Assembly: GCA_963702475.1 (NCBI GenBank)
Contig: CAVPCT010000009.1
Span: 1-64,000, forward strand
Source of the DNA: an uncultured Thermoleophilia bacterium
Lineage (GTDB): Bacteria; Actinomycetota; Thermoleophilia; UBA2241
DNA: 64,000 bases
Reading direction: 5' to 3'
Shown: one piece after another, positions 39,397 through 42,146 of the stretch
Layout of the letters: each line of letters starts with the position of its first letter
How positions within the stretch are numbered: position 1 is the stretch's first letter
Made by a program: the position numbers and the translations under genes
The notes under the pieces: generated by a model
What the model was told of the DNA's origin: nothing
Seen by the model: only the letters and a program-made list of their open reading frames with translations
The model's database searches: none

Positions 39397-40155
39397 ATGG
39401 CGCATGTCATCGCCTTCGCGAACCAGAAGGGCGGCGTAGCCAAGACCACCTCCACCGTGAACCTTGGCGCGGCGCTGCGCGAGCTCGGGCTCAAGGTGCT
39501 GGCCGTCGACATGGACCCGCAGGGCAACCTCACGATGAGCCAGGGCATCGACACCGAGGGCCTGGACAAGAGTATGTACGACGTGCTCGTCCACCGCACG
39601 CCCATCACCGAGGTCATCTACGAACGCGAGATCGACGTCGCCGCCTCCACCATCGACCTCGCGGGGGCCGAGATGGCGCTCGCCCAGATGATAGGCCGTG
39701 AGCGCGCCCTGCAGCGTGCCCTCGACCCCGTGCGGGAGACGTACGACTACATCCTCATCGACACGCCGCCGTCCCTCGGCCTGCTCACCATCAACGCCCT
39801 CACGGCCTCCGAGGGCGTCATCGTGCCGGTACAGTGCGAGTATCTCTCTCTGCGTGGCCTGCTGCAGCTGGAGCGCACCCTGGAGATGATCCGCGAGAAC
39901 CTCAACCCGGACGTGCGCATCAAGGGCATCCTGCCGACGCTCTTCGACGCGCGCACCAGTCACGGCAGGGAGTCCATCGAGGTGCTGCGCGACAACTTCG
40001 GCCCGCTGGTGTTCGATACCGTGGTGCGCAAGACCATCAAGTTCGCCGAGGCGCCCGTCATCGGGGCCTCGGTGCTCAAGTACGACCCCCGCGGCAGGGG
40101 GGCCGAATCGTACCGCGCGCTGGCGCGGGAGGTGCTGAATGGCCGATCGTCCTAG
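39397..40155 (+). CDS. parA: ParA/Soj-family ATPase (no adjacent parB)
   Basis: [10 protein letters not shown] deviant Walker [31 protein letters not shown]. Confidence 0.92.
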
Positions 40156-41344
40156 CATGAAGGATGGACTGAGCGAGCTCTTCCGGCGCACGGACTCAGC
40201 GGGATCGCCGCCGGCCGGCGAGTCCGCCCAGGAGGCCGTCGTCAAGGGGCGGCCCTACGTCACCACCATCAAGGTGGTCGGGGTGGGCGGCGCCGGCACC
40301 AACGCCGTCAACCGCATGGTCGACTCGGGCGTCAAGGGTGTGGAGTTCATCGCCATCAACACCGACGTGCAGCAGCTCGACGTGTGCGACGCCGACGTCA
40401 AGATCCACATCGGCCAGGAGCTCACCCACGGTCTGGGCGGCGGCGCCGATCCCGTCGTGGGGCGCGAGGCCATGGAGATCTCGCGCGACCAGCTCAAGGT
40501 GGCGCTGCGCGGCGCGGACCTCGTGTTCGTCACCGCCGGCGAGGGCGGCGGCACCGGCACCGGCGGCGCGCCCGTGGTCGCGCAGACCGCGCACGAGCTG
40601 GGCGCCGTGACCATCGCCATCGTCACCCGGCCCTTCCACTTCGAGGGCAACCGCCGCCGCCGGCAGGCCGAAGCGGGCATCGAGGTGCTCAAGCAGGTCG
40701 CCGACACGGTCATCAGCATCCCCAACGACCGCCTGCTCGAGGTGGTGGAGCGCAACACCAGCGTCGTGGAGGCGTTCAAGCACGCCGACGACGTCTTGCG
40801 TCAGGGCGTGCAGGGCATCACCGACCTCATCACCGTGCCTGGGCTCATCAACCTGGACTTCGCCGACGTGCGCACCATCGTGCAGGACGCCGGTACAGCG
40901 CTGCTGGGTATCGGCACCGGCAGCGGCGAGAACCGCGCCCAGGAGGCCGCGTTCGCGGCTATCCACTCGCCGCTGCTGGAGACCAGCATCGATGGCGCTC
41001 GAGGCCTGCTGCTCAGCTTCAGCGGCGGCAGCGACCTCACGCTGTTCGAGGTCAACGAGGCCGCCGGCATCATCAGCGACGCGGCCGACGACGACGCCAA
41101 CATCATCTTCGGCGCCGTTCTGGACGAGCGCCTGGAGGGCGAGCTCACCATCACCGTGGTGGCCACGGGGTTCGGCGACGTGGTCCCGCGCCGCGCACCG
41201 GAGGCGGAGCCCGAGCGTCCGCGTCTCGCCGAGACGGTGCGGGAGGCGCCGGCGGGACCACCGGCGCGCCGGTTCGGGCCGGCTCCCACGTTCGACAGCG
41301 GCGACTTCGAGATCCCGTCCTTCGTGCGGCAGCCCGAGGAGTAA
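40139..41344 (+). CDS. ftsZ: Cell division protein FtsZ with N-terminal extension
   Basis: [35 protein letters not shown] (T7 loop), C-terminal [17 protein letters not shown]; overlaps parA end. Confidence 0.95.
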
Positions 41345-41363
41345 GTGAGAGTGACGCCGGAGC

Positions 41364-42146
41364 GTGGAGGTGACGGTGCGCGCTGAAGCGGCGGCCGTCG
41401 CCGCACCCCCGGTCGCCCTGGAGCTGGACCTCGACGTCTTCGACGGGCCGTTCGACCTGCTCATCACCCTGATCCTCAAGGATGAGATCGACATCTGGGA
41501 GGTCAGGGTCTCCAGCATCATCGCCGAGTATGTGCTGCGGCTGGCCGACAGCGGGGAGTTCGACCTCGACGCGACCTCCCAGTTCGTGGTACTGGTCGCG
41601 GCGCTCCTGGAGATGAAGTCCCGGCTGCTGCTGGAGGAGGACGCCGAGGAGGAGCTGGAGGACCTCGACCCGGACGAGGCGGCCGAGCGTCTGCTGGAGC
41701 GCCTCGTCCGCTACGGCCAGTTCAAGAACGCCGCCCAGGCGCTCCACGGGCGCTGGGAGGAGCACAGCGGGCGGCTGTACCGGAGCGCTCCGGTGCCGGC
41801 GAATCTGCTGCGCCAGCCGGCCGCCGAAGGCGCCCTGCCGGCGCAGGCGCTGGCGGCGGCTCTTGCGCCGCTGCTCCGCGAGCCGCCCGTGCCCGACACC
41901 AGCCACCTCGCCGACCTGGCCGTCTGCCTGATCAAGGAGCTGCGCCGCCTGCGCCTCATCCTCGGCGACGCCGGCGAGTTCACCTTCTCGTCGGTAGCGC
42001 CCAAGGACCGGCTCGAGCGCGCCGTCACCTTCTTCGCCCTGCTGGAGCTGCACTCCGGCGGTGAAGCCCTGCTCAGACAGCGTCGTCACTTCGACGACAT
42101 CGTCGTGACGCGCCTGCCCGGCTTCGCCCCGGCCGCGGCCGGGTGA
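41364..42146 (+). CDS. scpA: Segregation/condensation protein A
   Basis: FDGPFDLLITLI, AALLEMKSRLLL, VTFFALLEL. Confidence 0.92.
   Translation: MEVTVRAEAAAVAAPPVALELDLDVFDGPFDLLITLILKDEIDIWEVRVSSIIAEYVLRLADSGEFDLDATSQFVVLVAALLEMKSRLLLEEDAEEELEDLDPDEAAERLLERLVRYGQFKNAAQALHGRWEEHSGRLYRSAPVPANLLRQPAAEGALPAQALAAALAPLLREPPVPDTSHLADLAVCLIKELRRLRLILGDAGEFTFSSVAPKDRLERAVTFFALLELHSGGEALLRQRRHFDDIVVTRLPGFAPAAAG

Follow-up and report, generated by a model that had tools for sequence, protein, structure and literature searches.

A second FtsZ with a conserved N-terminal peptide is encoded between parA and scpA in uncultured Thermoleophilia: a candidate ParA partner

The window, i.e., the whole 64,000-nucleotide stretch of DNA analysed here, carries on its plus strand a compact row of genes in which a parA runs into an ftsZ, here called ftsZ2, which is followed by scpA, scpB and an rluB-type gene. 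The features of this row are as follows.

39287..39319, plus strand: hairpin between yajC and parA, perfect 15-bp stem with a 3-nt loop
39397..40155, plus strand: parA, 252 aa, stop codon TAG at 40153-40155
40127..40134, plus strand: Shine-Dalgarno-like site GGGAGGTG in the parA 3' end, also encoding R-E-V of ParA
40139..40155, plus strand: 17 nt shared by the end of parA and the start of ftsZ2
40139..41344, plus strand: ftsZ2, 401 aa, full-length FtsZ paralogue with GTPase domain, C-domain, C-terminal linker and C-terminal peptide
40157..40192, plus strand: N-terminal peptide core, FtsZ2 residues 7-18, near-invariant, predicted helical, candidate ParA-binding handle
40196..40246, plus strand: tether, FtsZ2 residues 20-36, variable, disordered, rich in Pro, Gly and Glu
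41300..41341, plus strand: FtsZ2 C-terminal peptide, retained
41364..42146, plus strand: scpA (SMC kleisin), 19 nt past the ftsZ2 stop, ScpA Pfam match 2.7e-20
42527..43102, plus strand: scpB, ScpB Pfam match 3.4e-47
43245..44306, plus strand: rluB-type pseudouridine synthase, next gene in the conserved row

The coordinates agree with the original prediction, which was made from the letters of this DNA and described a 17-nt overlap, a GGAGG before the ATG and scpA directly downstream. This GGAGG lies 6 nt upstream of the ftsZ2 ATG at 40139 (4-6 nt for the site as a whole). Across 31 sequences, including the window, the Shine-Dalgarno-like site reads GGGAGGTG in 27, GAGGTG in two and GGGAGGTC in one, the region being partly cut at a contig end in L031. 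The second in-frame ATG of ftsZ2 encodes Met7 and starts at 40157, one base past the parA stop. The 17-nt overlap indicates translational coupling of parA and ftsZ2; adjacency and overlap speak for co-expression of ParA and FtsZ2, not for contact between them. Upstream, the hairpin between yajC and parA (z = -4.1 for the fold of 39270-39400) is terminator-like, without a T run, and likely marks a transcript boundary. In the consensus terminator scan it went undetected, and consensus scanning of 38700-43300 returned no promoter-like site; the terminator-like sites returned were two, weak, mutually overlapping and confined to the minus strand.

FtsZ2 is an intact FtsZ, as had been read from its GGGTGTG, NLDFAD and C-terminal IPSF motifs. 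Pfam places the Tubulin/FtsZ GTPase domain (PF00091, 3.8e-45) at residues 44-203 and FtsZ_C (PF12327, 1.5e-33) at residues 252-345, and the AlphaFold2 model of the core has a pLDDT of mostly 74-94, with two blocks at 61. GGGTGTG (residues 136-142) and the NLDFAD T7-loop (238-243) are invariant in a 27-row FtsZ2 alignment, and the first glycine loop of most FtsZ2 sequences is GGAG, not GGGG. The C-terminal peptide of FtsZ is the usual docking site for membrane anchors. In FtsZ2 this peptide follows a variable linker and reads …D[FL][ED]IP[SP]F…, with [DE][IV]PxF present in the last 25 residues of 118 of the 120 best listed homologues; the FtsZ copies of dcw clusters have …DVLDIPSFL….

Pfam scans found none of the dcw genes (ftsQ, ftsA, sepF, mur, mraY, ftsW) among the GC3-supported ORFs of the window that were scanned, so the ftsZ has no dcw neighbours here, as stated originally. 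The same holds for the FtsZ2 loci of relatives, where no match to ftsQ, murC, ftsW or mraY was found at any locus of this class (class 1). Instead, parA lies directly upstream and overlaps ftsZ2 in all 29 loci with an upstream flank, two of them with a frameshifted parA, and scpA is next downstream in all 30 loci with a downstream flank. None of 48 dcw-type FtsZ loci has the peptide, parA or scpA, and murC is upstream in 41 of the 44 dcw-type loci having at least 1200 nt upstream. One candidate for a peptide-bearing dcw-type copy, L034, was rejected as a chance match, since the similarity (from residue 7) crosses a stop codon in non-coding DNA. The MAG hosts of FtsZ2 are uncultured soil actinobacteria.

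The original prediction implied that this FtsZ had been relocated from the dcw cluster, and proposed a search for a second, dcw-type ftsZ. In relatives such a copy was found: among the 80 loci kept, six related Thermoleophilia assemblies hold both types (FtsZ2 and dcw loci L004 and L042, L017 and L033, L024 and L055, L027 and L053, L029 and L067, L032 and L046), and their dcw FtsZ is peptide-less and stands behind murC/ftsQ. Locus L004, which belongs to the window's own subclade in the tree, shares one contig with L042. FtsZ2 and dcw FtsZ form distinct clades, and the peptide-bearing FtsZs constitute one clade, comprising FtsZ2 and forms labelled Gaiellaceae. FtsZ2 is a second paralogue beside the dcw FtsZ in related Thermoleophilia MAGs, and parA-ftsZ2-scpA-scpB make up a conserved gene row in an uncultured lineage within the Thermoleophilia. 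Relocation therefore gave way to duplication as far as relatives are concerned, since these keep a canonical dcw FtsZ. That the window copy is nevertheless the sole FtsZ of its organism, shifted from the dcw cluster into the slot between parA and scpA, would suit a 64-kb window that is free of dcw genes and whose remaining genome lies outside the available DNA; given the assemblies with both types, one of them on a single contig, and the separate clades, we regard it as very improbable.

The N-terminal extension of FtsZ2 is conserved among syntenic FtsZs, one of the points on which the original prediction hung. A peptide starting M-x-x-R-P-S-M-[KR] is present in every one of the 30 FtsZ2 loci whose 5' end is available, and in 119 of the 120 best listed database homologues, the lone exception being annotated from a downstream start. 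The proposed division into a peptide, here 12-18 residues long, and a flexible linker, here of about 20 residues, ahead of the GTPase domain is likewise real: over 27 orthologues the mean majority fraction is 0.96 for the peptide core (residues 7-18) and 0.49 for the linker (20-36), compared with 0.89 for the GTPase and C-domains. Among 31 sequences, including the window, M7, D9, L11, E13, L14, F15, R16 and T18 are invariant, while position 8 is K in 22, R in eight and H in one. In the same sequences G10, L11, S12, R16 and T18 are each written with 3-5 different codons, and the codons for Ser12 are drawn from both the AGC and TCN families. Because the residues are invariant despite this synonymous turnover, the peptide is, judged by its codons, under selection at the protein level. 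A related peptide, [KR]xSMREGPLAELF[RK]xT, occurs on FtsZs that are farther from FtsZ2, some of them with the label Gaiellaceae; their taxa were taken from a few source names only (Gaiellaceae, Actinomycetota), and the Gaiellaceae-type form has a long linker.

An alternative is that translation starts downstream, so that the extension is not in the protein and its conservation stems from the parA overlap or an RNA element. Codons 1-6 of ftsZ2 do overlap parA, and of the 120 listed homologues 22 have their annotated start at the inner Met, with one more starting beyond it. However, codons 7-18 lie beyond the overlap and keep their amino acids through synonymous change, including the AGC/TCN serine switches, and a start at Met7 would still retain the entire core peptide. 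Within the overlap, Arg4 is found in 31 of 31 sequences with four codons although the overlapping ParA tail varies (RSS, KSA, RAT), and the GGAGG is placed for the first ATG. With this evidence, a start that removes the peptide is scarcely credible.

AlphaFold2 predicts a helix at FtsZ2 residues 7-17 and disorder at 18-43, with low pLDDT, so that the predicted picture, at low confidence, is of a short helical segment borne by a disordered tail. The original prediction likened it to a ParB-type partner peptide, and in part the likeness stands. The hydrophobic residues M7, L11, L14 and F15, all four invariant in 31 of 31 sequences, have the spacing (i, i+4, i+7, i+8) of L11, L15, L18 and I19 of ParB, and the N-terminal helical placement also agrees. 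Met7, though, may owe its invariance simply to being an alternative start codon. As in the ParB N-terminal motif described in the available text of PMC12462528, the peptide is short, aliphatic and basic, precedes a flexible region and sits on a multimeric carrier that presents many copies. What failed was the central Arg/Lys of ParB (R13 of M. xanthus, i+2), which corresponds to D9 of FtsZ2, Asp in 31 of 31; the basic residues of FtsZ2 are elsewhere, at i+1 (position 8), R16 and R17. The wider family has an inserted Pro (…GPL…), which leaves the hydrophobic residues spaced i, i+5, i+8, i+9. A match at the level of sequence failed as well. A profile of the peptide built from 14 sequences gave no matches at E <= 10 against PDB sequences, and there is therefore no statistically detectable similarity to solved ParB; among ESM Atlas look-alikes of FtsZ2 residues 1-30 there was no usable match. 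FtsZ2 further differs from ParB in that its carrier is a tubulin-like polymer rather than a CTP-gated DNA clamp, and in having no parS logic.

The original prediction also had the slot after this type of parA usually filled by a small protein starting roughly RRxSLPGAxELFRxT. None was found: a search for free-standing small proteins sharing words with the peptide gave short matches that, where inspected, were FtsZ fragments, although the search needs shared 5-residue words and a diverged small protein could escape it. Residues 1-40 of the window FtsZ gave 21 matches among 22 candidate shorter proteins, of which 12 have the tubulin Pfam domain. The nine matches without it were read, as was P0122, and proved to be pieces of FtsZ2 that are truncated, frameshifted or chimeric. 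The search with the Gaiellaceae-type P0287 returned 461 matches, the best 120 of which all bear the N-terminal peptide of that FtsZ, mostly at residue 1 and in five after a short read-through leader.

The parA product is, by its sequence, a Soj-type deviant Walker A ATPase. It matches Pfam AAA_31 at 4.2e-61, its deviant Walker A motif KGGVAKTT (residues 11-18) is invariant in 28 ParAs, and its best PDB sequence matches are ParA/Soj proteins (7.5e-64), with MinD structures at 3e-16; the C-terminal amphipathic membrane helix of MinD is absent from its end. No parB lies beside parA, which is preceded by yajC and followed by ftsZ2 in the window and likewise in 29 loci. Of the two products ParA is the better conserved, with 78-95% identity to the window copy vs 68-82% for FtsZ2. 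To place the ParB pocket, residues were mapped by hand through an alignment to 8ray (M. xanthus ParA) onto section 8 of PMC12462528, in the text available. V116, L150, L152, L155, L187 and L192 of the M. xanthus pocket correspond to M93, L127, L129, I132, M164 and L169 of the window ParA, all six being hydrophobic with little or no variation among the 28 ParAs, and Y81 corresponds to Y61. R238, whose role in DNA binding was seen with R238E in M. xanthus (PMC12462528, available text), corresponds to K215, which is K or R in all 28, and R211 and K212 of the window ParA are invariant. On this mapping, ParA keeps the hydrophobic pocket for a ParB peptide together with the basic DNA-binding residue. 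These pocket residues are generic to ParA and would equally fit a normal ParB, presumably encoded elsewhere in the genomes.

The downstream row of the window, scpA-scpB-rluB-…-cmk-…-der, follows what we take to be the mycobacterial order. PldP of C. glutamicum, Rv1708/MSMEG_3743 of mycobacteria and the window ParA are alike in being Soj-like, in having no adjacent parB and in lying directly before the scpA cluster slot, e.g., MSMEG_3743 and the scpA MSMEG_3742 are neighbours by number (PMC10482377, available text). In those organisms no ftsZ stands between parA and scpA, while in the window the end of parA runs into a second ftsZ. Orthology with PldP/Rv1708 rests on gene position, since the mycobacterial-type structure 4pfs (201 bits) scores no closer to the window ParA than M. 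xanthus 8ray (219 bits). In other actinobacteria the orphan ParA of this slot has been described as affecting septum placement (10.1101/2025.07.02.662783; PMC10482377), and the available part of the former source reports that PldP is unstimulated by ParB and gives its partner as unknown.

Given these features, we propose that the FtsZ2 peptide binds the ParA pocket and that ParA positions the FtsZ2 polymer as it would a ParB cargo, without an adaptor, a proposal by analogy to which we give about an even chance. The peptide would form a short amphipathic helix docking in the hydrophobic pocket at the interface of the ParA ATP-dimer, like the ParB N-terminal motif, the ParA concerned being the co-translated, nucleoid-bound one. 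Many copies of the peptide would be exposed on an FtsZ2 polymer, which would be held by ParA on the nucleoid, would locally trigger the ATPase of ParA and would then be guided along the ParA gradient, much as ParB-parS complexes are. Through its ordinary C-terminal peptide, and possibly by co-polymerising with the dcw FtsZ, FtsZ2 would then label the division site, or modulate it, in relation to the chromosome. A PomXY-, MinCE- or ParB-type adaptor would be unnecessary, and co-expression with ScpAB would tie FtsZ2 and ParA to chromosome condensation. Complex prediction with a ParA dimer, 2 ATP, 2 Mg and FtsZ2 1-40, both chains being entered as alignments, scored 0.19 and 0.23 against a mark of 0.32; it was run without controls and is neutral on binding. 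The original idea of a ParA-positioned FtsZ is partly supported, by the conserved peptide, tether and gene order and by the ParA pocket; the relocated sole FtsZ gave way to a second paralogue, the small slot protein was not found in the searches made, and an Asp stands at the ParB Arg/Lys position.

The peptide may, however, serve a purpose unrelated to ParA, such as tuning FtsZ2 polymerisation or bundling, or binding SepF, ScpA/SMC, DNA or a protease adaptor, with the genes merely co-regulated. N-terminal FtsZ peptides with roles in polymerisation have been published, e.g., for Anabaena FtsZ (PMC6175996, available text), and the ParA class may have other partners, as mycobacterial Rv1708 has been reported to bind ScpA and ParB (PMC10482377, available text). 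The Asp at the ParB Arg position and the Pro insertion of the wider family also fit a ParB motif poorly, and the search of PDB sequences with the peptide profile gave no ParB match. Against this, the peptide is confined to the FtsZ copy that overlaps parA (29/29 loci vs 0/48 dcw copies), and its N-terminal position, tether, short helix and hydrophobic and basic make-up match those of ParA/MinD partners (PMC12462528, available text). A membrane anchor, as one variant of a ParA-free function, does not suit a peptide that is too polar for it, as follows from its mean hydrophobicity of -0.33. We regard a ParA-free role as unlikely on balance, though clearly a contender.

Placement of the Z ring by ParA-like ATPases has precedents. 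MipZ of Caulobacter and PomXYZ of Myxococcus use ATPases of the ParA/MinD family to place the Z ring via the nucleoid, and it is with an N-terminal peptide that PomX activates PomZ (PMC9897490, PMC7993993, PMC13170346; available text). Those systems act on a single canonical FtsZ, via ParB in the case of MipZ or via the adaptors PomX and PomY, and the FtsZ itself is without an ATPase-partner peptide, unlike FtsZ2. MipZ is a ParA-like ATPase with FtsZ polymers as its direct target (PMC9897490, available text); in the same sense, the peptide might instead recruit ParA dimers to inhibit or cap FtsZ2 or mixed filaments near the nucleoid, as a built-in nucleoid occlusion. The same anatomical evidence as for positioning would serve this reading, and the present data do not tell inhibition from positioning; yet the Pfam MipZ model (PF09140) matches ParA at 5.1e-10, over profile positions 1-137 of 262, far below the 4.2e-61 of the Soj-type model, and we consider such an inhibitor improbable. 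Returning to positioning by ParA, its fullest form is that FtsZ2 is both partner and cargo of a PldP-type orphan ParA, in an adaptor-free two-protein system whose polymer bears its own ParB-like activating peptide and sets the division plane relative to the condensing chromosome; the peptide-bearing FtsZ clade of Thermoleophilia MAGs and Gaiellaceae-labelled forms would then be an old branch of the division machinery in its own right. This we put forward tentatively, at somewhat less than even odds.

Several groups of bacteria are known to have ftsZ duplicates away from dcw, described as mostly truncated (PMC13732431), while FtsZ2 is full length with its C-terminal peptide. In the available text of that paper Actinobacteria or Actinomycetota are not named, and no published FtsZ duplicate is described there as ParA-coupled, unlike FtsZ2. 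Heterocystous cyanobacteria have a lineage-specific conserved N-terminal FtsZ peptide (PMC6175996, available text). A literature search covering the main texts of freely accessible papers found no paper on an actinobacterial FtsZ paralogue or on an FtsZ-borne ParA peptide. FtsZ2 would be the first FtsZ paralogue in Actinomycetota that we could find to be full length and widely conserved and, if the proposal is true, the first FtsZ that we could find to carry its own ParA-partner peptide. Actinobacteria are, to our knowledge, without Min and Noc, which is why septum placement in them is a standing question. A parA slot translationally coupled to an extra FtsZ with a ParB-like handle would point to the divisome as a target of the PldP-type ParA class, and parA-ftsZ2 offers a simple, testable protein pair.

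The locus around ftsZ2, the gene for the peptide-bearing FtsZ, consists of the following features, with ftsZ2 directly between parA and scpA:

35835-36563, + strand: queH
about 36560-37655, + strand: queA, split across two frames
37652-38785, + strand: tgt
38791-39249, + strand: yajC
39287-39319: perfect, GC-rich 15-bp hairpin, separating yajC from parA
39397-40155, + strand: parA, stop TAG at 40153-40155
40127-40134, + strand: GGGAGGTG, upstream of the ftsZ ATG and containing GGAGG
40139-41344, + strand: ftsZ (ftsZ2)
41364-42146, + strand: scpA
42527-43102, + strand: scpB
43245-44306, + strand: rluB
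inside ORF 43993-45474, + strand: prephenate dehydrogenase, true start not set
45471-46130, + strand: cmk
3' of cmk: plsC, ispH, DUF512 radical-SAM protein, der, plsY, gpsA

The ftsZ ATG at 40139 lies 17 nt within parA, and Met7, the second in-frame ATG, falls one base past the parA stop. The protein has both Pfam FtsZ domains, GGGTGTG, NLDFAD and the C-terminal peptide, and no dcw gene was found among the window ORFs scanned with Pfam. As row, overlap, motifs and dcw absence are all as observed, the original prediction described the locus accurately, coordinates included. The hairpin region (39270-39400) folds with z = -4.1; having no T tract, the hairpin was not called by the consensus terminator scan.

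Some features of the window stand apart from this unit. The Queuosine_synth profile of queA is divided between ORF 36560-37456 (profile positions 2-84) and ORF 36858-37655 (85-321), and the frameshift near 36850 reflects an indel in the assembly or marks a pseudogene. metK also looks broken, since its S-AdoMet synthetase N-domain stands at the start of a 1240-aa ORF (54820-58542) that runs into priA and its C-domain lies in another frame (55629-56036); together, the two split genes suggest indel errors in the assembly. An ORF with a Phd/YefM-type antitoxin domain (35353-35811, - strand) lies between ruvB and queH, and a V/A-type ATPase operon (13434-20669, - strand; A, B, D and c subunits plus DUF2764) is part of an actinobacterial housekeeping region with high GC.

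One FtsZ scan of species-representative genomes yielded 543 confirmed relatives; we analysed the 80 best as loci L001-L080, under the taxonomic labels of their MAG records. L001-L032 match FtsZ2 over its full length (66-88% identity), and the parA-ftsZ-scpA neighbourhood recurs: parA is directly upstream and overlaps the ftsZ start in 29/29 loci with upstream flank, and scpA is next downstream in 30/30 with downstream flank. Where the flanks extend far enough, scpB and rluB follow scpA, and queA-tgt lie upstream. The peptide is present in all 30 loci with a 5' end, so the extension is conserved among syntenic FtsZs. parA is frameshifted in L008 and L011, where it occupies two frames (L008:5523-6279, L011:9258-10014) in long-read MAGs with ftsZ2 intact.

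In the remaining loci, L033-L080, the match begins only near residue 40 (58-67% identity), the FtsZ N-termini lack the peptide, and neither parA nor scpA was found near FtsZ. Pfam annotation of three revealed murE/murF-mraY-murD-ftsW-(murG/murC/murB)-ftsQ-ftsZ; among the 44 loci for which 1200 nt or more of upstream sequence is available, murC lies upstream in 41 and ftsQ alone in one more. None of these dcw genes was found at FtsZ2 loci. Six assemblies contain both classes (L004+L042, L017+L033, L024+L055, L027+L053, L029+L067, L032+L046), with L004, a member of the window's own starred subclade, about 180 kb from L042 on the same contig. The second, dcw-borne ftsZ that the original prediction had suggested seeking therefore exists in relatives. 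Judged from them, a canonical dcw FtsZ is retained in the lineage and the 64-kb window carries a second paralogue, so that relocation of a sole FtsZ from the dcw cluster is unlikely. ftsZ duplicates outside dcw in other groups are described as mostly truncated (PMC13732431). The first glycine loop (window 40271-40300) reads GGAGTN in most FtsZ2 and GGGGTN in dcw copies, GGGG being kept in one FtsZ2 subclade, L022-L027.

Conservation of the peptide was also evident in protein databases. Among the 120 best of 8000 scored FtsZ homologues (72-100% identity; the few named entries labelled Thermoleophilia), 119 carry it; the remaining entry has its start annotated further downstream. A leader of six residues, M[AV][DE]RPS, is present in 97/120, and the annotated start is the inner Met in 22/120. 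The core is the most uniform region of the protein:

Mean majority fraction per FtsZ2 region, 27-row alignment of genomic orthologues
peptide core, residues 7-18: 0.96
tether, residues 20-36: 0.49
GTPase plus C-domain, residues 37-346: 0.89
C-terminal linker, residues 347-387: 0.45
C-terminal peptide, residues 388-401: 0.73

Codons 7-18 lie outside the parA overlap. Across 31 sequences including the window, Gly10 uses four Gly codons (plus one Ser), Leu11 four, Ser12 both AGC and TCN, Arg16 three and Thr18 four; constant residues with varying codons beyond the overlap show that selection acts at the protein level rather than on the DNA or RNA. Four different codons encode Arg4, which is retained in 31/31, whereas the ParA tail read from the overlapping frame varies (RSS, KSA, RAT); this, together with GGAGG, favours ATG1 as the start codon. 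A start at Met7 would still retain the core peptide, and non-translation of the extension is unlikely.

The proposed likeness to ParB N-termini stood in its hydrophobic spacing and failed in its central Arg/Lys and in a profile match. According to PMC12462528, the M. xanthus ParB motif is a helix whose L11, L15, L18 and I19 fill a pocket of ParA V116, L150, L152, L155, L187 and L192, its central R13 contacts the region around ParA Y81, and ParA R238E abolishes DNA binding. FtsZ2 shows the same i, i+4, i+7, i+8 spacing with M7, L11, L14 and F15, and AlphaFold2 hints at a helix over residues 7-17 with disorder to residue 43 (pLDDT about 40, only a hint). However, FtsZ2 has an invariant Asp at the position equivalent to R13, its basic residue precedes that Asp by one position (K 22, R 8, H 1 of 31), an additional Pro alters the spacing in the wider peptide-bearing family, and the peptide profile matched no PDB sequence at E <= 10. 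The resemblance is thus one of design, not demonstrable homology. As a helix the peptide is amphipathic (moment 0.60) and polar overall (mean -0.33), the latter arguing against a membrane anchor.

The ParA belongs to the Soj-type ATPases, is 252 aa long and contains KGGVAKTT; at 78-95% identity across 27 orthologues (91% mean column identity), it is conserved more strongly than FtsZ2. In the PDB it matches 8ray best (7.5e-64), followed by 4pfs/5ihp/5if9 and, after these, by Thermus and Helicobacter Soj; MinD entries are far weaker matches. From its length and a D-to-A change seen in the alignment, we presume that 8ray is the M. xanthus ParA 21-274 D60A construct of PMC12462528. Mapped by hand from one pairwise alignment with 8ray, the window ParA counterparts of the six pocket residues, Y81 and R238 are M93, L127, L129, I132, M164, L169, Y61 and K215. 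They share the character of the M. xanthus residues, and all but position 169 (21 Leu, 7 Ile) vary little or not at all. With these residues matching, the protein resembles a DNA-binding ParA whose pocket for a partner peptide is intact and which has no adjacent parB.

More distant FtsZs (about 50-66% identity) turned up when 1.84 billion cluster representatives were searched with HMMER; they begin M..[KR][KR].SM[RK][ED]GPL[AS].LF[RK].T (P0143-P0146, P0154, P0287), and a linker of about 25-150 residues comes next. Residues 1-40 of P0287, used for a word search against shorter proteins, gave 461 matches, the best 120 of which are N-terminal fragments of P0287-type FtsZ, some named Gaiellaceae or Actinomycetota, and all carry MARKRA[ST]MREGPLAELF…, at residue 1 in most and after a short read-through leader in five. 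That leader, …RRCSM, is what a ParA …EVLxNG end, like those of L004, L017 and L019, gives when read out of frame, from which we infer parA immediately upstream in the Gaiellaceae-type form too; three chimeric fragments (P0348, P0350, P0402) continue into a ParA C-terminus. The Gaiellaceae-type linker (P0287, P0293-P0411; about 100-150 residues) contains two more conserved stretches, …ETVEHVPDF… and …AASRAAARYFQTMLEPAP[QR]LHRVP…, absent from the window's short-linker form, which may be extra partner sites.

In GTPase-core trees, not independently rooted, the peptide-bearing FtsZs all fall on one side of one branch with moderate support (FastTree 93, 174 rows; IQ-TREE quick, LG+G4, SH-aLRT 88, 45 rows hand-chosen from the 174). 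The branch is nested (support 99 and 97) in an actinobacterial clade that also holds Actinomycetes-type and Thermoleophilia dcw FtsZ. P0142 (840 aa), the top-scoring representative, contains two FtsZ-like stretches, either a tandem fusion or a mis-joined gene call, and lies apart from this clade.

Orphan parA-scpA adjacency and a division role of that ParA are described for Corynebacterium and Mycobacterium (10.1101/2025.07.02.662783 and PMC10482377); there, PldP is, per its authors, not stimulated by ParB and has an unidentified partner (10.1101/2025.07.02.662783), and Rv1708 is reported to interact with ScpA and ParB (PMC10482377). Our literature search, which excluded subscription journals and supplementary files, found neither an FtsZ with a ParA-partner-like peptide nor an FtsZ paralogue in Thermoleophilia. 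The Z-ring is controlled by the ParA-family proteins MinD, MipZ and PomZ, to our knowledge always via other proteins or the FtsZ globular body. We place parA-ftsZ2, as a candidate, among the ParA/MinD-type positioning modules, a known kind of system. Control could run in the MipZ-like direction, ParA inhibiting FtsZ2 filaments near DNA, which we consider improbable; a role of the peptide independent of ParA is a serious rival, although a doubtful one.

The best reading, given a peptide exclusive to the parA-fused copy, the architecture and the intact ParA pocket, is that FtsZ2 is a partner or cargo of ParA, a proposal to which we give about even credence. An FtsZ2 polymer would display many peptides, be tethered by them to nucleoid-bound ParA-ATP and trigger ATP hydrolysis locally; it would thereby be positioned relative to the chromosome, and would connect to the divisome by way of its ordinary C-terminal peptide.
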